A DNA stretch of 63,984 bases, counting the filler, from Cladosporium halotolerans (lineage: Eukaryota), in NCBI RefSeq assembly GCF_011745625.1. It is 5 parts of 5 records of this genome, joined end to end, with 100 filler letters (N's around TTAATTAATTAA, not from the genome) between each part and the next. Parts side by side here need not be neighbours in the genome. Positions count along the whole stretch, not along the records: positions 1 to 15,668 come from NW_027191559.1; 4 more parts are not named here. One strand, written 5' to 3'. Both the position numbers and the translations under genes were made by a program. Shown here piece by piece: positions 1-60,867 of this stretch; the first letter of the stretch is position 1; every line of letters begins with the position of its first letter. The notes beneath the pieces are model-generated. The model was not told where the DNA came from. It was given only the letters and a program-made list of their open reading frames with translations, and did not search any database.

Positions 1-214
1 AGCGGTGCCAAGATGCAGGCGTCCAATACGCAGACCGGGACACGGTTCAAGCCGTCTCCTCCGATCGATCTGATCCTTCAGTTGCCAGGGAGTCGCGCTA
101 CGATACATCACCAAGCAGTCTGCACTGCATCTCTACCACATTAATATTTGCGAGTTCTCAAACATTCACGCTAGAAGCTTTGTCTATATCAAATCAAATT
201 TAGTATGCGTCGCG

Positions 215-859
215 ATGGCTAGGGAACAACGAACACTAAGGCCCTTAGCGCCTAAAATCACGACTACTCACACGTTGGATCCTGTCTTTCGGACGATCGA
301 CGCCAATTATAACGGCCTCTAAGCGCTGTCGCCGCCGATACTGCGGGTACGGAGAAGTTAGGTTAAAGTTACGTATATAGCTTATTAGAGGGGAAAAGCA
401 AAGGTAAGTTATACCTAGAAAAAACAAGAAGGCTCTAGAAGGGCTCTAACGCTTTAGTAGTGCGATAGCCGGCGACCTTCTTACGAACGTTATATAAAGA
501 AGGGCGTCCTTTACGAGTACGATATTAAACCTAACTCGATACGTTTCGTATCTCTCTAGCGAAAAATCACCGCGCTCTAAGCGGAAGTAAATAAGTTATA
601 CGGACTCTTTCACTATATTCGCACTTACTCCGGCCGTTAGGCTAGGGAATTGTTTTAGGAGATACGGGCGTCGAAAAGCCCTATCGACGTAGTAAAGGTA
701 TCGAGGATTCTACGCGGGTTCTATAAATATACTAAAGGTGAGATAGTGGAAATCGGAACTTATTAGGAGATAAGTCGATATACCTTTTAAGAATGCCTAT
801 AATAGTCCGGATTGGTTTTAAGCCTAGAGATCTGCCTCTTATTTCTAGCCTTCGAATAA
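215..859 (+). pseudogene. RIP-mutated short Zn(II)2Cys6 transcription factor gene
   Basis: ATG215 reads MAREQRTLRPLAPK...VKVTYIAY*RGKAK, then a GTAAGT..TAG intron, then CDSRRPSYERYIKKGVLYEYD. Reversing RIP changes (TAT/TAC to TGT/TGC, TAG to CAG) restores a CxxC-x6-C-x6-CxxC-x6-C cluster followed by a coiled coil. TpA is strongly enriched. Confidence 0.8.
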
Positions 860-909
860 AAACGTATATAGCTATCGTATAGCGGTTTAGTATTCTAGTA
901 CTATATAGG

Positions 910-1448
910 TAGACGCTAATACCGAATAGATTCGTCTTAGAAATAGGATATTATACTAAGTTATCGCTAGTGGTCTCGATACTTTATTAGCTTATAAAAT
1001 GTTTAGAACCGCTAAGACGCGACTATACTACGGTCGTGCGGGCGGTAAGCCCGCTATAACCCGCGGAGCTACCCGAGCGACTAAAAAATAGCTATAATCG
1101 CGATACCGGAGTATCTTCGCGTCTAGCCCTAGTTAGCGGGCCCTAAGACTAATCCTATAGAACGACTAGTCTAGCGCTTATTTATAAGCCGCAACCTCCG
1201 TTAATAATCCCTAACGACATGTATTTAGATATATAACGTTCTTCTTACCGTAGCGTATCTAGTATATCTCTATCTATCTTTATTCGGGCTACCTATCGCT
1301 TCTATAAAGGCTCGAAAGCTAAAGCGCCGAACGATAACGGCGACGATTTAGATAATAAAACGACTATCTACGCGATCGGTGCCCTAAAACCTAATTAGGT
1401 ACGTAGGTAAACGATAGGAGAATAGTAAGAGATAGGTAATTAATTAAG
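910..1448 (-). mobile_element. RIP relic (copy A) of the 5' region and accessory ORF of the pogo-like element at 4076-8443
   Basis: Colinear with about 7815-8350. For example gccctagttagcgggccctaagactaatcctatag (~1126) matches gccctagtcagcgggcctgtaggctgatcctggag (8039), with many C>T/G>A differences. Confidence 0.85.
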
Positions 1449-1450
1449 TA

Positions 1451-1614
1451 ACGTCTATCTATATATAGCGGGAATCTTCTAATATTCGCTCTATATCCGT
1501 TATCTACGCTATATCTTATTAATAACTTATCTTTTGCTATTCTCCTGTCGTTTACCTATAGGCTTAACCGCGTACCGAAGCACCGACCGCGTAGATAGCC
1601 GTTCTATTATCTAG
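1451..1614 (+). mobile_element. RIP relic (copy B): 5' terminus of the same pogo-like family inserted head-to-head into copy A
   Basis: TA(1449-1450)+ACGTCTATCTATATATAGCGGGAATC is a RIP form of the TIR TA+ACGTCCATCCACCTGTGCCGGGAATC at 8445-8418. Positions 1515-1614 are an inverted copy of 1348-1448. Confidence 0.8.
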
Positions 1615-2088
1615 GATATAGTCTAGTAGAGGTAAGTACGCCTACCCTCTATCCGTAAGTTTAAATGTTGTCTATGCTCCTACCAAATTTGGCTTGGCAG
1701 TAAGACTATCCAGCTTCTCAGCTATCTCTTTAGCTTTCATCTCTAATAAAAGCCTAAGTATAATAATAGTATACCATATTTAAAGAGATATCTATTAGCT
1801 ACTCCCTATTATAATTTGAAGTAATTCAAAGTAATACTAAGAGAGTTATAAATTCATCAAGTAGAGATCACGATCGACATAATAAAGTTGGTCACCTCCG
1901 CGGAGCCGGCGGGAGCTCCCGCGACCTTCAAACTTGCGGATGAAGGGTGGGCGTCGCGGCGATTGCGGTCCGGACCGAAAATTTCCGGTCTCAAAATCTG
2001 AGATTGCGACCGCGTTTGTTTGACGTCCTCGCATCCTTCTCTTTGTCCCGGATTGCTATTCGCAAAGCTTGATGCCCTGGTAAACAAC

Positions 2089-2506
2089 ATGAGCTTCATA
2101 GGGCTCTTATTCTGTACTGATTGCGGAAATCTGCTCCCGCGAGCAAATAGACAACAGATGCCGCACATCATATGCGATGTCTGCGCAAAGTCAAATAGCA
2201 GTATGCATGCCTTTGATATGCAGTATGAATTGCGCTGAACGTTTCGCAGACCAGTGGCCCGACGAACAAACTACGGTATCGCGACCCGAAGCATTTCCTT
2301 CATCATTGCGACGCAAACTCTTGTCGAATACGATCGAAATCTCACAGGATGTTGCCAACTCCCAACAGACTGCGAATGAAGAATGTCCTAGATGTCACAA
2401 TCCGCAGCTGCGATTCAGCGAGGCTCAACTGCGTAGCGCCGATGAGGGATCAACAATATTTTACACGTGCCCCAAATGCGATTACAAATTCAACACCAAC
2501 AATTAG
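2089..2506 (+). CDS. RPA12: RNA polymerase I subunit A12.2 (RPA12)-like protein, two zinc ribbons, one intron (2201-2249)
   Basis: N-terminal LFCTDCGNLL...CDVC. After the GTATGC..CAG intron comes the C-terminal TFIIS-type ribbon CPRC...QLRSADEGSTIFYTCPKC. Confidence 0.92.
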
Positions 2507-4933
2507 AACGGCACAAGAACGCCAGTCAGTCATGGGAATGCGGGACAAGGCACAGCGTACATCTGCCCTGATCTTGGAATCCATTTTTTTGGTTCTACAG
2601 ACATCTGAGGATTGCACTTGAGACTGGAGCCTAAGCGAGAGCAGCTGCGGTTCTTCGCAAGGGCCGCACTCAATGCCGCGCTCCGAAGCAGGCGCGCAAG
2701 AGGCAGAATGGCCTTGGAGGAACAGGCAGAGGAGTATCGTCCTGAACGCAGAGGTTGTATGTTACTTGCGGATTAGCGAGCAGGAGAACACGAAAAGCAG
2801 CATACGTGGTCAACTCCACTGGTACTCTGCCTGTAAAGCCTTCTGCGCACTTCAGGCATGTAGCTAAGATCAGAATTTCCATCACGCAAAAGCTGCCATC
2901 TTCGAAGTGTATCAACACATCTTCTTCATTTGTTCTGGCAGCTCCTGTAAATGGTTCGCGATGGGCGACTGAGTCGCGAAAGCAGGCCAGAAGCGCCCCG
3001 GACGTTCTTGGGGCGGGCATAGTTACTAATTTAGTGACAACATGGGTGGGCGCTGTTTCAGGTGCAGCGCTTAAACAATGGAGCGGCGCCCCCAGCTACC
3101 CTGTGTTGATCAAGGCAGGTAAGGGCAAAGAGTAGCACATTGTTCTGGCTTCTTGGAAGCTAATCAGAATGTTTTATGGCTTGCATGGACAGCGTTTCAG
3201 CCCCGTCGCTTAACGCCTGCGGCGGCGCAGGCAGCATGCCTTCCTGAAACATCCGATTGCGAGGTGAGCAGCTTTGACAGTATATGAGCTACTGTATTCT
3301 TCTCACCTCTCATTCATTCTCTGTTCCCACTCAAACACAGCGATTGAACTACGCAGCCCAAAGATCAAAGCAGTCTGATCCATTCGACTATTACCGGCAA
3401 CCCACTTCACGTGAGGATTCCATGAGCACAATTCTTATCAAGCTGATCTAAGAATAGAGACAGCATGTGCGGCTTCGAAACCTTCCACTATCTTGGATGC
3501 GGCCACGACAGACCAATGGCATGGAAGCATTGTCCAGCTTCTGGAACCACTGGCAGACATACCCATCTTGGATTCACAACCAACGTGGCAGGCAAATGCC
3601 CTGATTGCGGGAAGGCTCAGAAGAAATGATGTGAAAATGCATATTTAGGATTGACTAGCTGGCTAGCCAGTCTCAGAATTGTGAGTGTGGAAATGCAAGC
3701 AGACCGGAGTTCACTCGCTGACACATCAACACAGCGGGTACTGTCTTGTGATGGACTGGTCGAATATGGCCTTTCTCAAACGTAAATATTATGCTGGCTT
3801 GCTTTTATTTCTCTCGGCTACCACAATATGTATCATCCAACAAACCCTTTCTATCCACCGTCCCATCCTTTATAGAACTGTCTGCCAGCTTGAAGCTGGC
3901 CTCGCGAAAAAGGTCATGAAGGCCCAGCAAGCTTGCTCCGCCTGCCCCGCGCGGCTAGTAAGGTCGACATGTCATAAAATGAGAAAAGCATCAAAAGCTT
4001 ACAGTCGTTCCAAAGTCTCTTCGGGAGTCGCAGGACACCCTGTGTGACAGATATCTGGCACAAGTTCCATGTGTAACGCCCATCTCTGTCCTGGGACACC
4101 CTGCGTGACGGGACACTTCTCCCATGATTTGCTCTGTATCCTTTTTCCGCGTCGTGCTTAACTTGTAATCTAACAATATTCCTTGCGTTTCTCCGCACAC
4201 AGACGAAGATTGAGATGCTTGCGATTCGCCACACGCAGGATGCCATCCTGACGCACTGGATACCGTATGCAGCTACTCCTTTTGATTCGACGGCCGGCTC
4301 ACCGGTCGATGCAAGGTGATGCAGCGTCGCTTTAGCATATCAACGCGCAGGTGAACGGCGAATGAGGGTCCGCCTAGGCGCATTACCCCACATCTGAAGC
4401 TGCCCGTCATGCTCAAGATGCAGCTTTTGGTCCTCAAAGAACCGTCGCGGGATGTCAATGCCTTCATGTGTTGCTTTTCAAGTTCACTGACTATGGCTCA
4501 TGTCCTAAGCGCCGATTTCACGTACAGTGGCAGCTTGGAATGGCACCGCTATTCACCAAAGATCGCAACATGCGAAGGGCAAATCATGTGTGATGTCATG
4601 TGGGTTGCACACAGCCTTGCAGTCTCGGAGGCAAACGGCGGTTCTGCAACGAATTTCCCGAAATCTGCACGAGGGCAATCTTTCTTGCGTGTTCGCTTGA
4701 TGTACTTCTTGCATAGCGCCAAAGAAGCACATATCAGGACTTCGCTTGCGCAGTCAGAGCTCATCATAGGACGACGATCAAGTCACATGTGCGGGCAAGG
4801 ACGCAACAGCTTCAACAAAAAGCGCAGACTGGAAGATATAAAGGATTAGCACCTTCGCTTCCGTTGCAGTATGGCTACGAATCGCAATATGAGTATTCTG
4901 GTATCGACATTGGGTGCCCATTGAGACTTTGAA

Positions 4934-5802
4934 ATGGAGATTGTGACGCTAGTAACACCCTCCGGGGAGAGGTGTTGCTTGCCCTGGGAAAGATGCATAT
5001 CCTGGCAGGTAAGTAGGTATTCGGTCAAATGGGTTCGGAGACGATTGTTAAAAGCATTCACAAGGTCGTTGAACCATTGATTGCAGCCTACATACGAAAT
5101 CAAGGACATCGGCAACAGTTCAAGGACGGAAAGTTCATGCTGACCAATTCCGCTGGCCTTACCATTTCCCCTTTGGTGTGGCCAGCAGGCGTTCTTCCTG
5201 GATCAGAGGCGGTTTTACGCATCACATCCGATCTCGATGACAATTTCAATGGGGCACACTCCCCCAGCCAGTCGATTCAAGACCATGTTGACCATAGCTG
5301 CAGTCGCATAGCAGTAAGGGTTGATGAAGCTCTGTCACGACTCGAAGAGGTAGATCGACACATCAGTGCATTCCACCGAACAGTCAATGAAAGCATCGAA
5401 GCGCGGCACCAGGACCAGATTGCCCACGAGACACAGACAGAAAGGTTCAGAGAAACTCGGTGTGATGCTCGGGAGCGTGAGCGCGAACTCGAAAGAGATC
5501 GGAGAGACAGAGAACGGGAGTCGGAAAGGGACAGGCGACAGCGCGAAAGAGAGAATACGCAAGACATCACACAAGGTGGGAGGCCGCTTATAACAAGCGC
5601 GCAAGATCCGGCGCAATTTCTCAGCGCAAATACAACCATGGAGACTGATCTGAGGGCACTGACAGACCAGGTCAGAGAGATAGGCGCAACATTGCAGCGC
5701 GCATGTAGAGAACGCGTCCCGTTCGGCCAAAGTGTTATCGTCTGCAGGAGACGGAGACTGAGATGCTTGCGGTACTTCGCGTGCAGAACGCCGCTTCAAT
5801 AG
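4934..5802 (+). pseudogene. Fungal ubiquitin-like-domain protein with an RE-rich coiled coil, probably frameshifted in exon 1
   Basis: VTLVTPSGERCCLPW..(CISWQ after a 1-nt shift), a GTAAGT intron, then IHKVVEPLI...GKFMLTNSAGLTISPLVWPAGVLPGSEAVLRI. This resembles the fungal ubiquitin-like domain pattern (..FPF..C.TWQ...G.YDL....G.II.P.VW..VI.P). An ERERDRR tract follows. Confidence 0.55.
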
Positions 5803-5975
5803 TTGCCGTGGGCGGCACTATAACATCTTGCAGATTCAAGTATCTTGAAGTTGATATAATGAAACTCATGAATACTTGTCTCGCTAATCTGCCGAAATGC
5901 CGATGCGCTCACGCTCCAGCCCGTGACCAAACCAGATCCTCAAATGGCAAGTCGCTTGAGACAGTCAGAAATCTT

Positions 5976-7718
5976 TCAGTACATACGCGCGACTGGCGCT
6001 GCACCAGGACAAGGAGGAATGGGCGCTGCTGTGTGCTGTGCTTGAGCCATCAAGAGCGCGTCATCGGCCGATTCCGCAGCAGTTAGAAGCGGTGACTGGA
6101 AAGTCGCATCCAGAACGGCTTCCTCTTCACTCTTGCGCTTCCGTCGCTGCTTTTTCGCAGCTTTCCTGGCATCTTTCTCAGCTCGCTTCGCTCTCGCCTC
6201 AAAAAGATCCTCGTAACTCATCACTTTCGCTTTGCCAAGGACCAGCGACTTCGTCGCACGGCGGACTTTGGCTTCGTCATTTCTCTTGAGCAGGGATTTG
6301 ATACGTTCTTGCTGAAGAACGCCCCTAGCAATGGACGTTTGAGCTCCTTTAGTGAGCTTCTGAAGGTGTCGCTGAATGCTCTGCTTTCCTATCTCCTCCA
6401 GCGTGTGTGCATCCCTCTCCAGAATGAAGTCACGCAGCGCTAGGAAAGCCTCTGCCGTCACTGGCGTTTCGGGTGTGATGGGCGCTGCAGGGACTCTGGG
6501 CGTTTCGTCTTGACAAGTGGCAGAACTTGACGTCGTTTCCCCACCGGCTTCCGGGGCCGGCAACTCGGCGAGAGGCTTCACCAAGTCCTTCATCACTCGT
6601 TCTGGGTTCAGTGGGTAAAGCCCGCCTTTGCTCCAGCCTGCGAGGATATTCTTCCTCGTAAACGCTTTCTTTCTTGCATAGCTGTATAGAGATGTAAAGT
6701 GTTGCTTCCCAATGGCGTTAACACCGCCCCGTTCCAGGCGCTCAACGGCATCGCGATACGCTGCTTTCAAGGGGGCGAAGACAGCAATGTCACACGGCTG
6801 CAACTTATGAGATGTGTGGGAAGGTAGCCGGCGTAGACGGATGTCACTGGCGAAGCAGTGCTCTAGGATCTCGAGCGTCTCGTGCGTGCCGAAACCATCA
6901 CAGATCAGCAACCGTTTCTTACCCCTTGCTCGTTCCTTGGTCTGCGGGTCGAACACCTTTTTAAGCCACTCGAGGCTTATTTTGGAGTCAGTGTAGCCAG
7001 ACTTGGAACACGCATAATGCCATCCTGGTGTGGGGTGCGTCGTCCAGTTGCCTCTATGGGTGGCCGCTGGCCAAATGACCATAGGGTTCAGAAATCTACC
7101 ATCGGCACTGATGCACTCGATCGCAGTAACCATCGTTCGCTCTACTCGTGCACCTCGATAATCCCGTTGGTCATCCTTTCCTACGAGCACCTTAACAGAA
7201 CCGAGCATAGAGAGCATGACTCCGGTCTCGTCCATGTTGTACACATTCTCTGCCACGATTGCGTCGTCACCCAGTACTTTACTAATCACGTCAAACCAGT
7301 GTTCTACCTTCGGGTATATGTTCTTGTCATGGCGCTTCCAATTTAGTGGTTTCGCTCGTCAGGTTTGTAGCTCTGGATGCCTTCTCTCGAAAGCTTTGGT
7401 CCAATTCTTGTTTGGTGCTTGGGCTGGTCTGTCCACTTCCAGTCAATGGCGGGTCACACTGAAAGCTATTGATGGTATGAACTTGTTCCGTACAGGTGTT
7501 CCCAGGTCGGACATCTCCAGGATAAACTCAATCACGGCCTTCTCCTCGAATGGCGTGAGGTATTGCTGGGCCTGGGCTTTTGCTTCGATGGATCTGCGGC
7601 CACGCGCACGAGCGTGGAGGGTAGAAAGTGGAACATCCCGGTGATCTGCAATAGCACGCAACGATCTTGGTACGCCTGCGGGAACACCTTGCGCCAAAGC
7701 CAGACTGGCTCTGTCCAT
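5976..7718 (-). pseudogene. pogo/Fot1-type DDE_1 transposase (~580 codons) with two premature TGA stops
   Basis: ORFs 7443-7718 (HTH, VPLSTLHARARGRRS) and 5976-7289 are in one frame, separated by two TGA codons that are probably CGA>TGA. Catalytic motifs are NMDETG, ICDGFGTH and LQPCDIAVF. Confidence 0.95.
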
Positions 7719-7814
7719 CCTCGCGATGTGGCCACGCCGTCGAGGTACAGCGGTACACTAGCAGAACCGGTGGGGAGCTCGGGGGAGGACCGGCTGGGGA
7801 AGCGGCCGACCCTG

Positions 7815-8297
7815 TCAAATGCCAAGCATTGCAAGGCTCTGGCGCGCGATCTTCCATGCAGTTTCCATGTGAGCTTGCTTCGCCTCCTGCGGAACACTGA
7901 CCGCCGTTTCGATATCAAAACCTTCGAGACAGGATTCCCCTCCACACGGGCGGACGGTAAGCCCGCGTTGCCGCGCGGTTCTACCCGAGCAAATCGCGAA
8001 GAGCGAAAGCCGCGACACCGGAGCGCATTCGCGCCTAGCCCTAGTCAGCGGGCCTGTAGGCTGATCCTGGAGAAAGACCAGCCTGGCGCTTATTTCTAAG
8101 CCACAGCCTTCATCAACGGTCCCTAGCGGGATGCGTTTGGATCTACAATCTTCTTCTGACCGCAGCACATTCAGCGCACCTGCTTTCAACTCCACTTGGA
8201 TTACATGTCGCCTTTCCGCGAGCTCAAAAGCTGGAGCGTCAAACCATGACGGCGACAATTTGGACGAAGGAACAACTATCCACGCGATCGGTGCTCT
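7815..8297 (-). CDS. Small accessory ORF (~150-160 aa, unknown function) between the 5' TIR and the transposase; start codon unclear
   Basis: Open frame APIAWIVVPSSKLSPSWFDAPAFEL...GCGLEISARLVFL...AMLGI*. The same sequence is recognisable in the RIP copy at 910-1400. Confidence 0.55.
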   Translation of the reverse strand, partial: RAPIAWIVVPSSKLSPSWFDAPAFELAERRHVIQVELKAGALNVLRSEEDCRSKRIPLGTVDEGCGLEISARLVFLQDQPTGPLTRARRECAPVSRLSLFAICSGRTARQRGLTVRPCGGESCLEGFDIETAVSVPQEAKQAHMETAWKIARQSLAMLGI

Positions 8298-9319
8298 GAC
8301 ACATGGTCAGCCCGATTGGTAAATGACAGAAGAATAGTAAGAAATGGCTTATTTACCAAAATGGATGTGGACAATGGATACAAGGCGAAGATTAGAAAAG
8401 GTGTCCCGGCACAGGTGGATTCCCGGCACAGGTGGATGGACGTTACTCCCGTTGAAAAGGCTCGACCGCAGTACGAGTAAGTGTACTGGCCTCTGGCAGA
8501 TGACGAGACGAGTAAAACGACATGAAGCGATGGATAGACACTGTTTGCAACACAGACACACCGTTGAACGATATGATTCAGAGAAGATGGACTTGCTCTC
8601 ACGTTTTGCGCACGGGTAACTTTCGTTGATTAGACGGATCAGATATCGTAAAATCGGCTTTCCCTTTGTAGGCAAATTCTACTTTCCCTGGAGTTTCCAT
8701 GCACTGGCTCGTGTCTGGAAGTATCACTTCCAAAAGTCGTCCATGTTTACTTGGGGAGCTGGTGCTCTCGGCATCCCTTGCTCTAATTTTTTGCGGTCTT
8801 TGATGACTTGCTCGCCCAAGATCCACGCATTCCCGCGTTAAATGCATGATCTCCGTTGGACGAAATATCTGTTGCACCAAGGCCAATGATCTTATTGAAA
8901 ACAAGGGGACCATCGTATCGGAAGTCCTCTGGAAATCGAGTGATGCATCGATCTCCGCGCTTGATGCAGAAAAGCGGTGCAACTTCACGCGATTCCACGG
9001 CTACATTCTTCGGTAGGAGCAAATAGTACCGTAAGCGGTGCCAGCGACCAACCTCTGACCTCAGATTTACACTAAATCTGTTGCATTCACAGCCACACCG
9101 ACCCTCTGTCGTAGTCGATAAGGCGTCGGTTCATTTGGCCTTGGACAACGCCTTACGAAGAGTTGCATAGGTTAACATTCCTCCCCGGCGACTCAATGGC
9201 GAGGCTCGCCGCCACCAGAGTCTCCTGCCTCAATCGCAATCTGACAATCCCCTTTCGCCAGCTAGCCACAAGCCAAAAGATGGTGTGCACAGTAGCTTCT
9301 ATTTAGTCGAGTATCATTT

Positions 9320-11375
9320 TCAGGGCACTGCGTCAAACAAGATGCGCTGAAGATTTTCCAACGTCTCATGGTTTCGACGAACTGTCGGAGATATGGTCGC
9401 ATGTCTCTCCAGGAAATTGACAGTGCGATCAAGGACATGTCGGAGGCGCTCCGCGTTCACAAGCGGTCTTAGGTACCAGTCGCGGAATACCGCACACAGT
9501 AGTAACATGATGGTGAAGTTACTGGTTTCAATGTCAGAAAACAAGCTGTTGGAAGCGGAGCGGGATCACTCACATGTAGGCAGTGCTTTGTAGATCCGCC
9601 ACGATCAACCGATGTGGCACTTGGTCAAATGCCAGGAGGGTTTGGAAAGCGGCTTCGATACAGGATCGGCGACCATCCATAAATCGTTCCTCTTTCATTG
9701 CCGCAATGGCTTCATAGACAAACACCTCGGCCCGCAAGTTCGTGATGACACAAATTTCTACAGCGGCTTGCTTGACTGTGTAGCCGATATCATAGTATGG
9801 CCGGATGTTCAGAGCGAAGCTTAAGAAGGGCCTATACATAAAGTACCGGACCCTCCAGTATTTGGCACGCAGCCGCGCATGGAGCATGTCGCAGGGAGGA
9901 CCATCCGAGTCATTCCATTGCAGATTCTTGGGCAGATGGTCTCTCCACTCCTGAAGAACAGTTCCGCAATTCATCAGCTCAAATCTTAAAACGTGAAATG
10001 TGGAATGGCGCTCTTGCCTGTATAGTCGATCATACAGGTCCGCAAGATGCTTCTCCAAGGAAATTTGCGCAGTCAAGAAGAGGAGCAGCTCTTCGGGAGG
10101 TCCTCTTGTAAATTGGACTTGCGACGTTGCTTGACAACTTTCTGTTCCAGACCAGTCTTGCGGCAAAGATAAGAAAGTGGAGAGCTCCGCAAGATGACTT
10201 GTGCGAGTATCCTCATGGGGCGGAGCTTCGTTCTCCAGCTGCAAACACGACCAAGCGGCGATCAGTGTCAACGACTCACTAAAGGTCCGTGGAAGTTCAC
10301 ATGGCGGAGTAGCGTGGATACTCGTGCCATAGATATCGTTCGCGCCGAACACTTTTCGGAGAGTCTGGCCCGCTATCGCAAACCATGATTTGCTCTCTTT
10401 GACGCGGTCAAAGTGGGCAGCAAAGAGACCGGCCAGCAGATACACCTGAGCACACGTCAGGGTTTTGTCTTGAGACGCTACCAAAAGAGATCTCATGGCT
10501 TGCGTGTACCACTTCGCACCCGGAAGAGAACAAGGATTGCCAAACTCGCGGCTTACATCTCTTTGCTGGCATGACGAAGACTTCGTTTGTTCGCATACCT
10601 CGCCAAGTGCTAGTACCAGAAGTATCAACACATTGTCCAGGTCAACTCTTTGGGAAGATGCGAATACCTGCAAGGCATTTCGACGCTTCGAGTGTCCGTC
10701 CGGGGCCTCATGGGCACCAGATCTGTGGGCGCTCACTCTCGCAACGTTGCTCATGATATAGTCATCAAGAAGCTCTCGGACGTTGCGTATGTCGAGAAAA
10801 GGGTAAATGCTATGGATCTGCTCCACATAATTGGCAAAGTAGCTGTTGATGGTGGTGGCTGCAAGTTCCGGGCTTTCGCGGCGCGAGTTTAGCCCAGGCA
10901 GCGACATGGTCGGTTCTGCGTATATCCGAAGGCTCTGCTGAGAGTGACTGCTAATCGTCGTCTGGCTTCCAGAGATATGTTCCATAAGATTGGCCACGCT
11001 TGGCCAAAACAAGATCGATTTTGGTGTTACCGTGCTGCGGGAGCTTGGCCCGGTGTCGGGTTCAAGCTGTTCAGACCGTAGCTGCTCCATCTGCAGGGCT
11101 ATTCCATCGCCTTCATGCTGCGCGGAGATCTTTCGACGCCTTGGTAGAGCATCCAGAGGCCGTTGGGATCGGGCACAGGCGACATACTCGCAAGTAACGC
11201 CACGGCTGCTGCATCCAGCACAGGTTGGTCTTCTGTCACAACGTTTCTTCAGCCTACGGCATTCCTCGCAAGCCCCCCCTGACCTTTTTGGCCGTCTCAC
11301 TTGTCCAGAGATGGCAAGTCGCTGCGACTTCAGGTCTCGACGATTTCCCAGCTTGCTGGAATAAGAGATGGTCAT
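9320..11375 (-). CDS. Zn(II)2Cys6 transcription factor, FTF1/FTF2-like family, with one 3' intron (~9550-9575)
   Basis: CEECRRLKKRCDRRPTCAGCSSRGVTC cluster. Family-type motifs are LILLVLALGEVC, AWSCLQLE, LTAQISLEKHL and DMLHARLRAKYW...YRPF. A last exon frame lies at 9320-9544. Confidence 0.85.
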
Positions 11376-12443
11376 GTCAAAAGAGCGACACTTGTTGTTC
11401 GGGGCACAGAAAAGTGAACAATTGCAAAAATTTCTCGTCAGAGAATAGACATTCTCGCTAGTTATTGTCAGCGCCGTTGGCGTGAAGATTTCAATGCGCG
11501 CACAGCATGCTGAAGTATGCCGGCGCTGACCTGGACCTCTTGCACACTTCTGCCTGATGCTGCCCTGAAGATTCAGCCGCAAAAGGCGCCAAGTGCATTG
11601 GCACACATTTCAGGACTCGTCAATATCCTGGTTCGCCCCAAAGGATGGACTTGACTGCCAAAGCCCTAGCCTCCAGATTGTATTGGGTAGCGTCGGCTGA
11701 AGATTAGAGCAGCATGTGAAGCGCGACCTGCACCTAGAAGCCAGGGGCTGTCATCGTCATCACTGACGCCACTAAATCAGCACTCAGGGTTGGCTGTGTC
11801 ACCCCGTTGCCTGGATGGCGTTCACACCTCCAATTCGCGAAGTCGGACGACGAAGACGTACCGACCGGGTTCCACAGCTGAAGCAAGCGCCACCTGCCAG
11901 GGATCGGGGTCATCCAAGCACGAACTCTAAGACAACATGAGATGGCACGTGCGAGCGGGCTCCCCATGGTCTCTTCGGCTGAACACTGAAGTTGAAGCGT
12001 GAACTACGGGCGAGGCGAGAAGGCCGACGTCCCGTTACTGGACCGTGCTTCTCCGAAGTGAAGAGACCGGATTTTGCTTGGAAAACCGTGCCTTCCGGAT
12101 CCTCCTCATGATCTTAAAATCCAGAAGATGGCCATCGCTGGCACGGTCGCGTGCTCACTGTTTGTTGCAGCAGATGCTGAGGAGATGCGAGTTTCGGTCT
12201 ACATGAATAGCATAGCCATCAAAGTGGAGTTTCATTGCCGCTTGATAATAAGACCCCATCGATACTCTACATCATCGGCGCCTTCACTACATGCGTGAGC
12301 ATCTATCACCCCTGACAGCCTTCGTTAAGGAGCAAGTCGTCTCAACCCTTCTTGCAGAGATACAGTTCCGGTCGGGTCACGCGATGCACAAAATTGTAGA
12401 GAACGCCAATTGAATGATCAGACTCCTCAGTCTCCGTGGCTGG

Positions 12444-13581
12444 TCAAGACCTCGGAGATGTTGTACATTTTTCGATTTCTTGGACGATCAGTTCTATGTC
12501 GGGCGTGTCAGTTTACCTGGGTACCAAGGTCTCCCAATACAGACTTACTTCTCACTTTATCTATGCTCAGACAAATGGGTTCACCGAAGTTCAGATAATC
12601 ACGAGGTATACGATGCGCTTCAGGTTCGTCGGCAGAATCGTGGTACACTCCGAGGTATGGATGTTCCAGGGCCATCCCTACACTGATGCGCTCGTCAGGA
12701 TTGAAGGACAACAGTCGGTCCAATATGTCGAGTGCTTGGTCGGAAGCACGCGGGAACAATCCTTTCCAAGACGTTTTCGACTTAAGCGGTAGTCGTTGAA
12801 TGTGCCTTTGCGCACTTTTGTCGAGCTTGTGAAAGTCCTTCGAATAAGGCGTCCCAATTACATCGAAAATTTGACCAAGCTGCTCCTCATGCCTGGTTCC
12901 AGAGAAGAGCCGTTTGCGGCCCAACATCTCGGCAAATATGCATCCAACGGCCCACATATCTACAGCCGTGGTGTATCTCTCCGGTGGAAGCATGATATCA
13001 GGTGCCCGATAGCAGAGGGAGCCGACTGGTCCAGTCGAAGTGCCCTTGGCAACATCGCTGTTCGTTGAAGGGCGCGCAGCACCAAAGCCGGACACCTTGA
13101 GGTCGCAATTGGTGTTGATCAGCAGGTTTGAAGGGTTGAGATTGCAGTGAACGATGCCAGCAGAATGTATTGCTTTCAACGCACGCAGGATTTGATAGAG
13201 GAAATACTGGCAGTGGTCGTCGGACAGTTCTTGATTGCCGTCCATTATGAGCGACTGCATGTCCGTTTCCATCAACTCTTGGACAATGTAGACCTCTTGA
13301 CAGGACTCAGAGTTGCGCGGTCGAGGGACGTCTAAGACCGGAATTATGTTTTCGTGGTGAAAGTGACGGAGCAGCTTGATCACGCACAAGACGCGCAGAC
13401 CGCATTCCAGATGTTCGAACGGGAGTGATCTGAGGATGGCGACTTGCTGCTGGGATTCTTTGTGTGATGCAGCAAAGACAGTGTGATAAACGCCTTCTGC
13501 CAGCCGGTCACAAAGGTCGTATTCAGCGCCGGGGTGGAAACCGCTGTTGGAGGACCAGGATTCACACTCGCCGCGAGGCAT
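12444..13581 (-). CDS. Fus3/Kss1/Pmk1-derived MAP kinase-like pseudokinase
   Basis: Colinear with Fus3-type MAPKs (EVYIVQELMETDM, LSDDHCQYFLYQILRALKAIHSA, HPYL..YHD..DEP). A GTAAGT intron near 12548 leads to a last exon LIVQEIEK..*. Catalytic motifs are substituted. Confidence 0.9.
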
Positions 13582-14260
13582 CTAGGGGTTGATGCGGGCA
13601 GTTTCTCACTTTGGCGGAGCTGACCATCAAGAGTAGTTACCCATGTTGATATTTTGCAGTCTCTCTTGTATGGTGTGTGGGTCGACTAACAAGGTTGACG
13701 GGTGCCAAATGAAGTTATGGAGATGACGTGAAGGTCGTGGATGCCGAGTACTTTGAGGGTAGCATTTAAAACCGCTCCTGAAGAATAGTGATAGTCAATG
13801 CCATGCTAGTTTAGCAGAGTGTCTTACGATACCGCAAAAGACATCGGGCGTCCAGCATCAAGACTGCGCCGTCTTGGCATGACGACTCCCGAGGACCAGA
13901 TTCACTAGCTCGATGGATCAAAGTATCACATAGTAGGCGAGGTAGGCGAAGCAAAGCTGGCGGCTGAGGGCAGGGGCGAGGGCAGGCACGCAAACGTTGA
14001 TGGTCAGCGATCAAGGTCGAGAGCGTTTCACAGCAGCGCCTCGAGCTCGGCTCGCTTCATCAAAGCGTCTGCAGCTGCATTCGATCTGTCATCAAGAGCT
14101 ACCCAGCAACAAGGCGATCGGCACAGGTGCAGTGAGTACAGTTATGGACAAGGCGATCTCGAGGACAACATATCGTGCATTCCACTGCGCGCGCTTCTGG
14201 ATTGATTCTCAATTTAGTGCATTTGACACCAGGTCGCACGTGGTCTGAGCGAATCCAAGA

Positions 14261-14697
14261 CTACTCCTCCTCATGCGTGAACACCAGCACCTCGAAACCC
14301 GTGTCTCCTCTAAGTTTGAGCGGAATCACTTTCTTCGCATCTTCCGCGTTCGCCATCAGCACTTCTTTTGTGGACTTGTTGTAGATATAGAACTGCGTAG
14401 ATGCGGGTGGCGACGTACACAACACTGCAGGATGTCAGTCAAGGCGAGATTTCCGAGGCACCTGCTTACAGCAATTTTGCTGCACCCTTTTTCTGAGAGA
14501 TCGTGAGCATGTGAAGAGGAAGCCAGGCGGAAAAGCACTCACCCAAAAGAATAATTGACCAGTGTGCTTGTGTCGCAGCGCTTATCATGTCCATAGTCGT
14601 TCATCATACCTGGTCGGCTCGGCAACTCGTGCAGTAAGTGGAATAAGTAATGATAAGAGCAGTACGTGATCCGTTTGCTGTGACACCTCATTTTCAT
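14261..14697 (-). CDS. Small multi-exon hypothetical protein
   Basis: GTGAGT (~14541) and GTAAGC (~14469) donors with CAG acceptors link short exons to a terminal exon ..TQFYIYNKSTKEVLMANAEDAKKVIPLKLRGDTGFEVLVFTHEEE*. No family recognised. Confidence 0.35.
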
Positions 14698-15569
14698 TCG
14701 CCGCAAAATGATGTTGCGCGAGAGCACTGGCCAAAAACGAAGCGTAGGGCGCGATGTATGTTGGATGGAATGTGTAAGAGGAGGTGTATCCTCTCCTATC
14801 TAGTGCGGTAAAGACGATACATATGTAGCCCTCCTGAAACCGTGGCGTGTCGCAGATGCGACGCATGGCTGCCTCAGGAAGGGACTGCATTGCAACAATG
14901 TAGCTGATCGATGTGGTCGTGAGAGTTCGCGCGGCCTTGGAAGACTGAACAATATATCGTCGGCTGCGGGGTCGTATCACACAGCTGACCGGGCTGCTGC
15001 TTTGATCGTGGTCGCGAGGGTAGATTAAACGCTTTGAGGATACGACAATAGACATAGCCCATGCCAATGCAGTGCTGACGGCTTTGGCCCACTTCAAGAT
15101 ATGACCGAATCAAGTTGAGACCTTTAGGTAGTCAAAGGTCTGAAGCTTTCCGAACGCGACATCCGCGGCCGGCGCGGTGAGGCCAATAAGTGGCTGTCGC
15201 CTGCACTCTTTCTCGAACGCACTTGAGGACACTGTCTAGCGACTCGCAGATGTTGACCACCACGAGCGGGAGGCGTGAGCTCCAGATGCTTTGAACTCAC
15301 ACAATCATCTCGCGTTGTCCTCCTGTCTGGGTTCAAGAGCCAGTGCTCTTACTTATGCCGTGGCCACACGGAAGGGGAGCCGCTTGGATTGGTCCTCATC
15401 AATAACAGCCGACCCGTCATATCTCTGATCTATCTCGCGCCCGTGCCGCGTGATCTTACCTATTTGACATCTCAGCCTTGACGCGATAGACTTAACAGTC
15501 TCTCATATCATAGCTTTCGTTAGGGGAATGTTGCCCAAGTACATGTGTATATCATCCTCGAAGGAGCGC

Positions 15570-15668: not shown

Positions 15669-15768
15669 NNNNNNNNNNNNNNNNNNNNNNNNNNNNNNNN
15701 NNNNNNNNNNNNTTAATTAATTAANNNNNNNNNNNNNNNNNNNNNNNNNNNNNNNNNNNNNNNNNNNN
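15669..15768. other. Artificial contig linker
   Basis: N44-TTAATTAATTAA-N44 (stops in all six frames). Confidence 0.99.
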
Positions 15769-16932: not shown

Positions 16933-17628
16933 ATGGTGACTGGATCTAATCGCAGCCAGCGCCATCGCGGTTCGTCGCTCTTTTGAACTTCTACTCATCA
17001 ACCAAGTCTCATCGTGCCAGCAAAATCGTCACATCATCCCCGAAGCGGCGCCCTCGAAAGGCCTATCCGCAGTCCGCAAACCTCTTCACCTTGTATGCCA
17101 GACACCACCTCTGCAATGCCGTCCCCGCGTTCCTCACCCGCCATGCACCCAAAATCCCCCCTCTCCCCCCGCTACGAGACCGCGCGCCTCGACACCGTGC
17201 AACCGCCCTCACCTCGCGCCGTCCACCATCGCACGAATAGAAACTCACGAAGTGCCAACAAGCAATCTATCATGCTCCCCACCCTCCCTCGCTTCCACCC
17301 GGCCAACTTTCCCTCTGCAGACAGTATCGACCAGAGCACGCCGGGTGCTGGCGCCAGCTCGCTTCAAGTCTCTATCTCGGACCATAGCCATCAGCGCAAG
17401 TATTCAGGCGCGCAGAAGCAGCTGTTCATGTACCAGCGAGAGAAAACCGCGGCAGTCACGCGGTCCTCTCGCGAAGATAACCCCGCGAGCCCTCGCCTGG
17501 TGCCTCTCAGCAGCCCAGGGCCCGTGACGCCGTTGGAGCTGGAGCAAAGTGAGGGTTACCTTGGAGCGGGCAAGACCAAGGATAGGAGCAAGCCGCCTGC
17601 AGACCCAGGGAGCTCAGGAAAAAGCTGA
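16933..17628 (+). pseudogene. Conserved Ser/Pro-rich fungal hypothetical protein, 5' disrupted
   Basis: Motifs LPTLPRFHPANF, AQKQLFMYQRE and PASPRLVPLSSPGPVTPLELE. There is an in-frame TGA at 16984 and a TIR just upstream. Confidence 0.6.
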
Positions 17629-20476
17629 ACTGGGAGCAGATGACGGGGTCATTCCTTCGTCGGAGGAAAGACGGGCAGAGCGATGAGCACGATAAGCGGC
17701 TCAGGCGAACAGTAGATGAGTATCTAGGCGACGGCACATGCCTTTGATGAGTAAGAGGCTTAGCATGCTAGCGTACAGCAAGAGCATAACTCAGTCACAG
17801 CATTGCCGGTTCGATGTCTCGGTTCCAGGTTGAATGATTATGTCGTAAAAGGGCAGACTGATTGCGGTAGCCCGGCTCAGTAACTCGGTCCAATAGGCGC
17901 GTTGGAAGAGGCAGAAGATAGGCTGTGGAGAGGTCTGATGTGGGCAAACGAAGAGAGAGCGGTTCGAGATTCCGCTCGAGAGGTTCCAAGACGACGTGAC
18001 TTCGACGAAGCAAGGGGCATCGTTCATTGGTAATGCCAACAACGGGCTGTATAGCGAGGGTGGACGCTCACACACGCGATGGCAGACGCATGCGGTCCAG
18101 AAGTGCGTCAGCAAGGCAGGCGGTCAAGAAATGCCAGCACGCAGGCATTCAAGGAAGCTCGATCGGCTCAGAGAGTGGCTTCTGTTCTGTGTGCATCTGG
18201 CCGGCGGACAACTAGCGCGGTGGACGTAATCACGCCCGTGCCGTTCACAGTTGGCTTTCAACGGGACCGCAATATCTATATGATACCAGGACATATGGTG
18301 GTCGTTGTCACGATGAGGCGAAACATGAAGATGGGTAGCAATTGCCTAATGGGGGAGTGGTTACCAATGGTAGGTTTGGTTTTTGCCCCAAAAGCGTAAC
18401 CAACCTAACCATTAATTTCACTGCGTGGTATTCGCGAGGCAAATATCTGGATCGGTCGGACTGGGAACGCCAATTCAAATTCGTGCCATCAAACGAGTTC
18501 CGCTGCTGAATTATTGCAGAATACGCATTTCCTTTGTCGTAATAGCCAGCAACCATATGTGGTCCGGACATGTGCAGCTCGCCGGGCGTCCCACGGCTGA
18601 CGACCTCCTCGCTTGCCTGAGAACAAACAGAGCCTGAGGCCTTCCCTGACGATCTCCTCGCCCTGACCACGATGGGAGTTGTTCTTCGGAAGAGCTACCG
18701 AATCGCTCGGTAGTCACCGCGCTTGCGCCGTGTGCAAGAACATCCGGCATCAAGGGATCTGCGCCGCCTACGTAGCGTTGGGTGTAGAACTGACGTGACC
18801 TGATTTTGCTCGAAATTATGCTTCAATCTGGTACTAACAATGACCCTGTTAGTGACAAAGTTGGAAAAAGGTAATAATGACGTTACCTGCATATAGCCGA
18901 GCTGAAGCCCCGAAAGCACACCCCAACCAGGGATCGCAAATGGAGCGGAGTGTGATCCGTACCGCAAAACGCAGCTCAGCTCTGTAATAAACAGCCACCC
19001 CTCGCGGTGAACGCATGATGGAGAAGATCCCACGGCAAGCCAAATGTCACCGGCCGCATGTGGAAAGCACGTTGCAAAATTATGACATAAGAGTGGCACA
19101 CTCCCTGCCGCCCGTGTGCTTGGGGTTGCAAGCTTCGAATGGGAAAGTGGCTTTAAACGACAAACTGCCGGCAAGCATACGGAGACGTTACGATAGCCGT
19201 TGAATTGCGAACTAGCCTTATCCCCGGTGACGTTTATGCAATCCTGCCGCAGGGTGGGAAAAGCACGCGTATCGGCACGTCGCCCAGGCTCGCGAGTGTG
19301 TCGGCCGGTGTCGTTGGGCGTGATCAGCCTGCTATCGCTGTTATACTGGGCACGAGTCCAGTCTCTGGCATTCCGCATCGCAGGCTGCTCGTTGAAGCAC
19401 CATTTTTCTCACTGTCTCTCGATCCATGGATACACTGGATGATTTCATATGCCACCGAATTTGGGCAGATCACTGATAGAGAAGCTGGCGTGTAGCCGCA
19501 TAGGCTGCGGAGCTGGTTACGAAGCCGCCAATTTCCGCGCAAGGATGCAGAACGAAGGGCCGCATGCGCAAAGCGGAAGAGACGGGCAGTCCCATTGACC
19601 AATGCAAGCCGTCAGAAAGACCGAGTCGCCTCCGCACCCGCCTCCGCGAAAGCTGTTCGGTTCTCAAGCGTGATAGGGAGTTGAGTCAGTCGAAGGAATT
19701 AAGGCACAAGCGACCGGGCACGGGCTTGAATCCCCTCGCGTAGACGGTTCTTGCGGAATTGGGACTGGAGGCCGTGCCTCGTCGGCCGCTTTGGCATTTA
19801 CGCAGCATGCTGATTCTGAGCATTCTGGTCGATATTTGTGGAGAGGCCGGGGCGTCTCCGCGTTACTTTTCAATGCCCTCTTTTATTGTCCGGGCCCAGA
19901 GCGAGAAGTGTTACTGGGCTTGCAGCGTCTTGAGAGCGGGGAGACTGATCGGTCGATGCGAGCCTGTGCCGCAGTATAGCGAGAGGGGATTTCGTTCAAT
20001 TTTGAGGGGCCAGCTCCGTCTCAGGTCATAGTTCCTAATTGGCTTCTATAGTACGGCCACATGCTTGTACTCCGCTGCAGGAAGGCTTGCTAACCCCAAA
20101 GCGCGCGTCAGACTTGCCATCATAATGGATTCGTGGAACAGCAGGAAACTCTTCTTTGCGCGTGCAGAACTGTGATTGCCCCAGTCCCGTATGGCGCCAG
20201 TCGTTGGCTACAGTCAAAGAATGCTTCTCTGCGCATCAGCCTGGGATCACCGCGTGGCGACAGGGACGACACAGCGTCGACCCTCCCAAAGCCACATGAC
20301 GACCCGCAGTCTGTACAGCCGCTGAGGCGCTGAGCATTCCTCTTAGGCAGGGCGTAAATCAACGTATGCGTTATCAGGACTTGCACTTCCTAAGTTCAAC
20401 ACTCACCTCTGCCTACTGCTCTGTAAAACTTCACCCACACATCACGCTAGCCCACTGGCCCCTCACCGTCTAAACC

Positions 20477-22249: not shown

Positions 22250-23136
22250 TTATCGACTCACGCCTCTGCTGCACTTCCCCTTGCTTCCTGGCCTTCTCCT
22301 TGGTTCGCTCTTGAGCTCTAAGCTCTCTGTTCCGCACTAGCTGCTCCTTTTCTTGCTCCCTGCCCATTGCAAGGCCTCGAGCTCGCCGAAATATGGTTAG
22401 GCTCGTTATGAGCGTGCCAGACCCTTCATGCGACCTCATCCTTTTTCTGTATCTACTTCTTCCTCTGCTCTAGCCTGAGAGCTGTGCCAAGATGCTTGTT
22501 CCGCAGTACTCAACAACTCAAGCTTTGCAGATAGACCGAGTACGGTATCGCCGAGCTTCTCGAGCGTTCTCTGCGTTTCTCTGCGTTTCTCTGTGTTTCT
22601 CTGTCACTTCCTGCCACACTGCTATTGCGAAAAGTCCGGAGCCTCTTGGCCTTCGAAGGCGAGTCGAACGTACTGCTCAAGCTGCCGCTAGCTGGCCCTC
22701 GGCCGACTGACCCCCTGGTGTCTCTTCATCTGCCGTAGAGAACATCGAGAGCACTTTTGGGATCGAAAAGCAGGACTCCCGCCTTAGACCATGCAGATGC
22801 TATGATCTTCTCTGTAAACGCTTTCTCAAACGATGGCCAGAAGATTGCAAAGGGATCTCGCTTGCTCATCGTTGTACGGCCTTCTGACTGTCGGATAAGG
22901 CTGTCCAGTCCTTGGCTGTAATGGTGAGCTAGAGGCGCGAACACGGCTCACATCCAGAGGCTGCAATCTGTGTGTGGAGTGAGGTGGGCAGATGGCGATC
23001 AAGATCCTGTGTTGCTTACACCAATTGAGGAACTTCATGCTGAGGTGTGAGCCGTGACCGTCGACAAACAGCAGCCGCCATGACCTCTTCGCTTTGACAG
23101 CTGTTTCCTTCTCGAACAGGCCGGTCAGCCAGCTGT
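22250..23136 (-). pseudogene. Fot1/pogo DDE_1 transposase fragment, frameshifted
   Basis: WRLLFVDGHGSHLSMKFLNWC...PPHSTHRLQPLDVS / FAPL...AFTEKIIASAWSKAGV, followed by a basic coiled-coil tail. Confidence 0.9.
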
Positions 23137-23758
23137 AAGAGCCTTACATTGCACGATCTCGAAACAAGCGTACGGAATGGAAATTGGGCAACGCAATCGC
23201 ACAACGAGCCCACGTTGGACGAGGCCTTCAATGCAGCAGACAACGTCTATCTGATCTTTTCGGCCAATAGGTCCGGCGAGTACTTTGGCTACGCGCGTAT
23301 GGCTTCCTCAATTGCTAGCGGGACAGTGCCAGCAGGATCAGCACCTATTTTTCAGCTTCCAACTCCAAGCGACGGTCCGAAATCTATTCCCACACCCGCC
23401 ACCGAAACCGCTCCTCGCGGTCGCGTTGTTGACGACTCGACCCGCGGAACTATCTTTTGAGAAATAGTGTTGGCAGATGATGAGGGTGCGTCATCGAATA
23501 AGGAGCTTGAAGAAGAGAATGGTGGCCAGGATCTGGGACGCCCCTTTCAAATCGAATAGCTCTCAACAGCACGACTTCCGTTCTACCGCACTCGTGGCTT
23601 GCGCAATCCTTGGAATGCAAACAGGGAAGTCAAAATTGCAAGAGACGGGACAGAAATAGAACCCTCGATTGGTAAACGTCTGGTGCAGATGTTCCATCGG
23701 CCTGCGCGAATGGGCGCTCCGCCGAACCTAACGCAGCCAGATGGTATGCCGTACTAGA
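23137..23758 (+). pseudogene. YTH (m6A reader) domain gene fragment
   Basis: KSLTLHDLETSVRNGNWATQSHNE...VYLIFSANRSGEYFGYARM...PF..*..RLPFYRTRGLRNPWNANREVKIARDGTEIEP. Two Trp codons have become stops (TGA ~23458, TAG ~23557), and the N-terminus is missing. Confidence 0.9.
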
Positions 23759-31213: not shown

Positions 31214-31313
31214 NNNNNNNNNNNNNNNNNNNNNNNNNNNNNNNNNNNNNNNNNNNNTTAATTAATTAANNNNNNNNNNNNNNNNNNNNNNNNNNNNNNN
31301 NNNNNNNNNNNNN
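31214..31313. other. Artificial contig linker
   Basis: N-TTAATTAATTAA-N, 100 bp. Confidence 0.99.
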
Positions 31314-46164: not shown

Positions 46165-46264
46165 NNNNNNNNNNNNNNNNNNNNNNNNNNNNNNNNNNNN
46201 NNNNNNNNTTAATTAATTAANNNNNNNNNNNNNNNNNNNNNNNNNNNNNNNNNNNNNNNNNNNN
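46165..46264. other. Artificial contig linker
   Basis: N-TTAATTAATTAA-N, 100 bp. Confidence 0.99.
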
Positions 46265-60767: not shown

Positions 60768-60867
60768 NNNNNNNNNNNNNNNNNNNNNNNNNNNNNNNNN
60801 NNNNNNNNNNNTTAATTAATTAANNNNNNNNNNNNNNNNNNNNNNNNNNNNNNNNNNNNNNNNNNNN
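60768..60867. other. Artificial contig linker
   Basis: N-TTAATTAATTAA-N, 100 bp. Confidence 0.99.

Follow-up and report, generated by a model that had tools for sequence, protein, structure and literature searches.

A probable decayed Fot-type pogo transposon with a cargo slot in Cladosporium halotolerans, and the NLR genes carried by its relatives

Introduction

The closest described systems are the pogo transposons, which the accessible text of a survey gives as 1.2-5.2 kb long with open reading frames (ORFs) that encode the transposase (PMC7386202). In the same part of that survey, almost all Fot elements have a DD35D signature, TA duplications occur in clades FotC and FotD, and most Fot elements have terminal inverted repeats (TIRs) of 40-60 bp, those of about 100 bp being found mainly in FotC, whereas lengths of 392-856 bp are restricted to unclassified insect pogo elements (PMC7386202). 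Here we describe a stretch of 63,984 nucleotides from Cladosporium halotolerans (NCBI RefSeq assembly GCF_011745625.1; five parts of five records, joined with filler letters and hereafter called the window), in which positions 4076-8443 probably constitute a decayed pogo element of the Fot type that carries a second, unrelated gene.

Eukaryotic cut-and-paste transposons are usually treated as transposase-only, and cargo carriage in fungi is tied to the Starships and a few special cases. The accessible part of the Starship study describes these elements as fungal cargo carriers whose conserved accessory genes include NOD-like receptors (NLRs) of the SesA-NACHT-ANK and HET-NACHT types, with turnover of the cargo (PMC9156397). 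Fungal STAND (signal transduction ATPases with numerous domains) genes, according to the accessible text of Dyrka et al., average 46 per genome among strains with matches and make up at most 2.3% of proteins (PMC4986451). In what is accessible of a further study, transposable-element DNA is more abundant in the flanks of NLRs whose internal repeats are highly conserved, and movement by transposable elements is suggested with the vehicle unnamed (PMC13449251). TIRs of about 700 bp are given for Tec elements in the accessible part of another report (PMC7325037). We found no description of pogo or Fot elements with NLR or ULD cargo in the literature covered, from which subscription journals and Repbase were excluded.

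Results

Termini and target site

The unit at 4076-8443 is 4,368 bp long and has TA on both sides (4074-8445 with the flanking dinucleotides). We regard it, with good confidence, as a decayed copy of a Fot-type pogo transposon from a lineage with a long leader, sub-repeat termini and a cargo slot, the slot here holding a ULD_2 gene. Its anatomy, both termini, its broken genes, the architecture of its relatives and the different insertion sites of near-identical relatives are all direct observations. The 5' TIR spans 8364-8443 and is followed by TA at 8444-8445, evident from the sequence and from contig breaks. Its outer half, 8401-8443, is the 43-bp TIR that the initial annotation had recognized; this half contains the sub-repeat CCACCTGTGCCGGGA twice in tandem and is a true terminus, and the TIR extends to 80 bp. 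At the other end, a diverged 3' TIR at 4076-4153 has the family terminus and two sub-repeats, as revealed by gapped alignment with the opposite end of the element and with the right end of L001, a metagenomic sister copy. The TA next to it (4074-4075), assigned as target-site duplication, is seen in the sequence and is the exact point at which contigs of sequencing runs X9 and X10 begin. The family terminus is ACGTCCNTCC, then two sub-repeats of about 16 nt, and both window ends match it over about 80 bp. Each end reads TA, ACG(T/C)CC.TC and then the two sub-repeats ending GGGA(A/C), a plan found also in seven relatives; the sub-repeats are presumed to be transposase-binding sites.

The degenerate partner TIR proposed at 4076 held up in two comparisons. 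When the reverse complement of 8401-8445 was searched across the 64-kb window, the top match was 4074-4117, with a score of 27 against 23 for the runner-up and 27 reached by none of 200 shuffles; the same search gave no TIR-like match near 5800-5976. Gapped alignment of the two window ends gave 55 of 80 identical positions, with scores of 54-56 against a maximum of 39 in 100 shuffles, and the left end (4076-4153) is identical to the right end of L001 at 53 of 75 positions. Since the two ends align only with gaps, the 4076/8443 pair was not one of the 25 longest in an ungapped inverted-repeat search.

Transposase and leader

The transposase pseudogene, of the pogo/Fot type with a DD35D signature, occupies 580 codons on the minus strand (5976-7718). 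It matches DDE_1 in Pfam (5.8e-32) and aligns in a single frame, at 96.7% identity, with the intact 580-residue protein P0009. Catalytic residues D163, D274 and D310 of P0009, the last two 35 residues apart, are all D in the window copy, and among 51 aligned rows D occupies the three positions in 50, 46 and 51. A match to the helix-turn-helix family HTH_Tnp_Tc5 is weak: the window fragment gives E 0.09, and P0009, with 21.0 bits, falls short of the cut-off of 22.2; PF03221 is precomputed for P0010-P0012. The closest named protein relatives come from Cladosporium. What had been taken for a full DDE_1 transposase does have the DDE_1 domain and DD35D, but it is not intact: read in the frame of P0009, its codons 92 and 120 (7443-7445 and 7359-7361) are TGA stops. 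On its sequence, the window element is a decayed, now non-autonomous copy.

Between the transposase and the 5' end lies a non-coding 5' leader of 725 nt (7719-8443, minus strand), which is homologous to the leader of L001; the first 533 nt or so of the L001 leader recur as a long TIR. An accessory ORF of about 150 residues had been proposed in this region, and we rejected it as a gene. The stretch in question, 7815-8306 on the minus strand, is a run of 163 codons from stop to stop with no proper start, its first ATG lying 24 codons before its end, and it has no Pfam match. The homologous L001 DNA contains 6 stops in that frame, mismatches between the two fall 48/38/48 over the three codon positions, with no codon-position bias, and leader-leader similarity is seen in all six frames. 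Across eight leaders, the longest ORF beginning with ATG on the transposase strand has 32-114 codons (46 in the window). The stretch is leader or long-TIR DNA and non-coding, and the description of the element as two ORFs plus cargo therefore fails. From terminus to transposase ATG the leader measures 634-764 nt in all eight elements measured (the window copy and seven relatives), and many relatives repeat it as a TIR of 415-760 bp.

The putative ULD_2 gene in the slot

The slot of the window copy contains a gene for a ULD_2/long-helix protein at 4934-5802 on the plus strand, convergent with the transposase and located by tblastn with P0006. Residues 1-27 of P0006 match 4934-5014 and residues 29-303 match 5017-5799 in another frame; the longest ORF is 5029-5802. 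The convergent ubiquitin-like-domain gene of the initial annotation is thus present as a ULD_2-type gene, with a frameshift at 5015-5016 relative to P0006. The ULD_2 assignment (PF22893) is itself marginal, with E 1.7e-4 and 22.2 bits against a cut-off of 24.5 in the window ORF and 27.2 bits in intact P0006, and AlphaFold2 gives a predicted local distance difference test score (pLDDT) below 35 over that part. Pfam matches in the ORFs of the element comprise only DDE_1 and weak matches to HTH_Tnp_Tc5, ULD_2 and an ODAD1 coiled coil. The confident part of the AlphaFold2 model of P0006 is confined to a helix of 115 residues (116-230).

The ULD family falls into 8 clusters at 49-96% identity, across which a C-terminal CRRRxLRCLRYFAC tail and the helix are conserved. 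Reading frames differ among the copies, P0002 having its upstream part in another frame and only P0006 and P0008, the latter from Cladosporium fusiforme, keeping the N-terminus. A search of 1.84 billion representatives returned 2 strong matches and 9 in all, each of at most 312 residues; we rejected the idea that the domain is fused to NLRs elsewhere, none of the nine being a fused form. In the Atlas, no more than a weak pointer emerged (score 0.77), to a cluster with ULD_2 in 60% of its members. Upstream of the ULD gene, the cargo-side spacer at 4154-4933 has no recognized gene by Pfam or by similarity to 80 metagenomic loci, and its ORF 4409-4849 (plus strand) has no Pfam match even at E<=5. 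No NLR match at 1e-4 was found in the window.

Metagenomic relatives and their architecture

A metagenome scan with the transposase alignment yielded these 80 loci. The window copy has its sister in L001 (proteins 81% identical, support 100), which aligns with the window element from terminus through transposase at 78.7%. L001 measures 4,723 bp, with TA on both sides and TIRs of 533 bp that are 83% identical, and its slot after the transposase stop holds 1.7 kb of DNA that is unrelated to the window cargo and whose ORFs have no Pfam match. Every relative with both ends located is TA-flanked (L001, L002, L005, L008, L013, L019, L041 and L048), and TIR lengths in the relatives range from 50 to 760 bp. 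In each of the eight elements measured (the window copy and seven relatives), 1.9-5.8 kb separate the transposase stop from the 3' end, so that in none of them does the 3' TIR lie just after the stop. The proposal of a cargo-carrying pogo unit of about 4.4 kb from TIR to TIR is in this respect borne out: non-transposase DNA lies between the stop and the 3' TIR of the window copy, and relatives of 4.7-8.1 kb are built alike.

TIRs were not found in L006, L010, L012, L015, L030, L034, L038, L042, L049, L051, L053, L058, L068 and L073, some of which are cut by contig ends and in which short diverged TIRs could be missed. The TIR pairs of L016/L017 and of L023 were not counted as true ends, the flanks continuing the inverted repeat; L016 has 65-bp perfect inverted repeats that may likewise not be true ends. 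In a quick, midpoint-rooted transposase tree with some long branches elsewhere, the window copy and L001 fall within an 18-row clade (SH-aLRT 98), whose members carry NLRs where there is enough flank. Full-length, stop-free transposases occur at 13 loci, among them the NLR carriers L002, L004, L008, L009, L010, L013, L014 and L019.

NLR cargo and its turnover

An NLR is enclosed in seven of the eight TA-flanked relatives (4.7-8.1 kb). Between their TIR pairs, SesA-NB-ARC-TPR genes are found in L005 (8,090 bp), L013 (6,854 bp), L019 (6,335 bp) and L041 (7,774 bp), a PNP_UDP-NB-ARC-TPR gene in L008 (about 7,482 bp), a HET-NACHT-WD40 gene in L002 (7,445 bp) and a NACHT-WD40 gene in L048 (8,076 bp). 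The transposase C-terminus is held by 53 loci, 26 of which have at least 3 kb of downstream DNA, and in 16 of the 26 an NLR lies downstream of the transposase. NB-ARC/TPR-type tblastn matches account for 9 of these loci; Pfam, applied to the 39 longest of 104 ORFs (at least 110 residues) from 17 loci, adds L002, L010, L038, L048, L059 and L064, and L003, which is the L002 locus with two extra 126-bp WD40 units, was assigned by identity to L002. Among the additions, L010 is HET-NACHT-WD40, L038 is NACHT-ANK, and L059 and L064 are NACHT-WD40. The scan patterns were drawn from the transposase only, and NLRs were therefore not selected for.

The remaining loci are varied. L049 has HET and ANK ORFs with no NOD match; the downstream DNA of L034, L042 and L058 gave no match; L015 and L030, whose downstream DNA was examined by tblastn alone, have NLR parts upstream only. 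Non-NLR genes are found in L006 (OrsD, DUF7587), in L016/L017, which are one locus (DUF7587, kinase), and in L073 (aminotransferase). In L016/L017 (8047-14284) and L006 (7734-10383), a DUF7587 gene with a protein kinase or OrsD-like ORF stands where others have an NLR.

Near-identical relatives sit at different sites. In L008/L011 (95% identical) and in L013/L014 (98.9% identical), homology begins exactly at the terminus and the flanks differ, and L019 and L041 (85% identical) have both ends in common at different sites. L006 and L007 are 91% identical in leader and transposase and diverge right after the stop, which indicates cargo turnover. In Cladosporium fusiforme, gene model P0137 (1,316 residues) joins DDE_1 to NB-ARC and TPR, which shows this neighbourhood in an isolate genome as well.

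Some of these loci have further peculiarities. The WD40 repeats of L002 (3087-3867) and L003 (8527-9559) are 126-bp units that are 92-96% alike, the samples differing by two units (252 bp); this is an NLR of the 'highly conserved repeat' type inside a transposon. In L052, a 2.1-kb inverted duplication (6001-8101 and 13144-15240, 83% identical) flanks the transposase, with PNP_UDP-NB-ARC-TPR parts in each arm. L038 has a second, inverted DDE_1 fragment at 17255-17830, 1.3 kb past the NACHT-ANK gene that follows its first transposase.

Contigs from public sequencing runs

We compared the window with Logan contigs of the public runs X5, X9, X10 and X12. Both X9 and X10 have a contig of 3,215 nt that is about 99% identical to 4074-7049 (30 differences) and stops at 4074, 31 letters from the contig end at position 4104; in X5 and X12, contigs run across 4074 in the same way as the window. 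Where it could be tested, the segment 4076-5900 was not seen without the transposase, 4074-7049 being one contig in X9 and X10 that ends at the TA. A contig beginning at the TA is the expected assembly-graph outcome for a repeat with more than one flank, and the contig end in X9 and X10 suggests two or more copies there. The left flank (2000-3987) has depth 0 in X9 and X10, which, like other uncovered parts, was not counted as evidence of absence. At the other end, higher-depth repeat contigs (8444-8986) begin at 8444, different DNA precedes 8444 in X5, X9 and X10, and three contigs of X12 part from the window after 8445.

The right flank has features of its own. From 8444 to 10500 its depth is 3-4 times that of the element in all four runs, and contigs break at 8986/8989, which marks the right flank itself as repeated DNA. 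It contains a Zn(2)Cys6 ORF (9570-11609, minus strand), followed by a protein kinase ORF (12508-13581, minus strand).

Other features of the window

Leader relics degraded by repeat-induced point mutation (RIP) lie at 1003-1623: 1003-1448 matches 7915-8360, and 1457-1623 matches 8420-8251 in inverted orientation. Their outer ends face each other 8 nt apart and look like the junction of two abutting copies or of two ends. TpA/ApT is 1.5 at 1003-1623 against 0.5-0.7 in the element, and window positions 1-2000 as a whole have undergone heavy RIP-like decay (1.5, against 0.5-0.8 in the remainder). A weak, frame-broken relic of another DDE_1 transposase is found at 22657-23140; over residues ~248-407, it is 31-38% identical to P0009-P0013. 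Four pairs of 44-N runs (15669-15768, 31214-31313, 46165-46264 and 60768-60867), spaced about 15 kb apart, look masked rather than like assembly gaps.

Discussion

The transposon copy in the window is dead and belongs to a Fot-type lineage with a long leader and a cargo slot; of more interest is the pattern of NLR cargo in the family. An intact transposase of the same family, for instance of the 97% identical P0009 type, would bind both ends, and the unit would move by cut-and-paste at TA. The internal DNA would be irrelevant to this reaction, so that anything between the ends would be carried along, and the ULD gene would be a passenger replacing, or standing in for, the NLR cargo of the clade.

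Several observations weigh against this interpretation of the window copy. Both of its genes, transposase and ULD_2, are broken, and the identity of its TIRs is only 69% over 80 bp, whereas those of L001 reach 83% over 533 bp. Contigs suggest two or more copies in X9 and X10 but cannot give copy number, and the contigs of these two runs have the same length and the same differences and may come from a single strain. Joined together, the two flanks do not restore a single target. To the left of the TA, uninterrupted copies of the right-flank repeat have other DNA, which is absent from the window; recombination between two copies would account for this. A true empty site was not seen among the contigs of the runs compared. 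AlphaFold2 gives P0006 no confident ubiquitin-like fold (mean pLDDT 56, below 35 for residues 1-113). The 80 metagenomic transposase loci encode no ULD relative, and none came from scanning metagenomes with the ULD profile either, a scan whose patterns fell on a low-complexity RDRERE stretch; the link between ULD and transposase therefore comes from one element lineage (the window and X5, X9, X10 and X12).

The failure of the flanks to reconstitute one target, together with TIRs as unusually diverged as 55 of 80, would also fit a composite or chimera, in which 4076-4153 belongs to a second copy as its solo end, or arose by ectopic recombination between two copies, and the ULD gene is trapped resident DNA. 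The different DNA in the slot of L001 points the same way, as does the L006/L007 pair, in which the content of the slot turns over beside a 91% identical leader and transposase. We nevertheless consider such an origin unlikely: the 4074-7049 arrangement recurs at 99% identity in X9 and X10 on a contig that ends at the TA, with the left flank uncovered there, and the ULD family, which is tiny and multi-copy, has decayed reading frames as transposon-borne DNA does. A gene trapped between working ends would in any case still travel as cargo, so that a composite concerns the origin of the unit more than its mechanism.

An active part for the ULD_2/coiled-coil protein, for example as a regulator or partner of the transposase, appears similarly improbable. 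The narrow lineage to which its family is known to belong, the conservation of the CRRRxLRCLRYFAC tail and helix among copies only 49-96% identical, and a slot and convergent orientation shared with the cargo of L013 and L019 would all suit such an accessory. Relatives with intact transposases, however, have unrelated slot genes (NLRs of three architectures) and no ULD, several ULD copies are frame-broken, and pogo transposases, to our knowledge, work alone in known cases. We favour a passenger by a wide margin over a protein with a role in transposition. That the locus is an ordinary truncated Fot1-like copy beside a host gene, its left 'TIR' a chance match, can be dismissed as highly improbable, for although the 43-bp match is weak and the ungapped search passed over the pair, 4074-4117 outscores every other place in the window and all of 200 shuffles, the homology to family ends including L001 extends over 80 bp, TA stands exactly at the junction where contigs of two runs break at 4074, and nothing TIR-like occurs near 5800-5976.

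We lean slightly towards a broader view in which this pogo clade consists of small dedicated NLR carriers with a long leader, long TIRs, one cargo slot and turnover of its contents, widespread in the fungal DNA of at least 8 metagenome data sets and present in Cladosporium. On balance, and by a similarly narrow preference, the slot would then hold SesA- or PNP_UDP-NB-ARC-TPR, HET-NACHT-WD40 or NACHT-ANK genes, including conserved-repeat NLRs of variable copy number, with the ULD_2 gene of the window as an alternative cargo. A small DDE element with a reusable and usually NLR-filled slot would explain the association of NLRs with transposable elements, and also the patchy distribution of NLRs and NLR phylogenies that do not follow species relationships. 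If this is true, simple cut-and-paste would allow fungi to copy and relocate receptors for immunity or allorecognition, and perhaps to trade them; another possibility is that keeping cell-death genes benefits the transposon itself. The system is small, comprising two ends and one transposase, and is therefore open to direct laboratory testing.

The described family that these elements resemble most is Fot (Fot1 and its like), with which they share DDE_1 with DD35D, TIRs, the TA duplication, a fungal host and a putative N-terminal helix-turn-helix of the psq/Tc5 type (HTH_Tnp_Tc5 being weak in P0009 and precomputed for P0010-P0012). They differ from the pogo elements in the accessible part of the survey in their leader of 634-764 nt, TIRs of up to about 760 bp, spans of up to 8.1 kb and a second, unrelated gene. 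Set against a simple transposase-only pogo of 1.2-5.2 kb, as that part of the survey has it, the window copy is within the range at 4.37 kb but has the ULD_2 gene, and seven relatives are 6.3-8.1 kb long and have NLRs. Tec and TBE elements, relatives of Tc1/mariner, are also multi-ORF elements of the wider group, but have ciliate hosts, a DD34E transposase and other accessory genes.

Pack elements (Pack-MULE and similar) are non-autonomous and carry fragments of host genes. Our lineage is like them in that non-transposase DNA between TIRs is mobilised; the 'Pack'-type label of the initial annotation does not fit, however, as the lineage encodes its own transposase and carries whole genes, and the window cargo is a complete member of an orphan family, for which 9 matches of at most 312 residues and no longer parent were found. 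ToxhAT, in the accessible account of it, is a 14-kb TIR-bounded class II element of Dothideomycetes that moves a host-relevant gene (ToxA, in wheat pathogens), and it differs in belonging to the hAT-like superfamily, in being larger and in having several genes. The comparison with a miniature Starship holds only as an analogy. Starships have a DUF3435 tyrosine-recombinase captain, which is absent from the Pfam matches of the element ORFs, and are far larger, whereas the elements described here combine a DDE transposase and a TA duplication with a length of 4.4-8 kb and one cargo gene.

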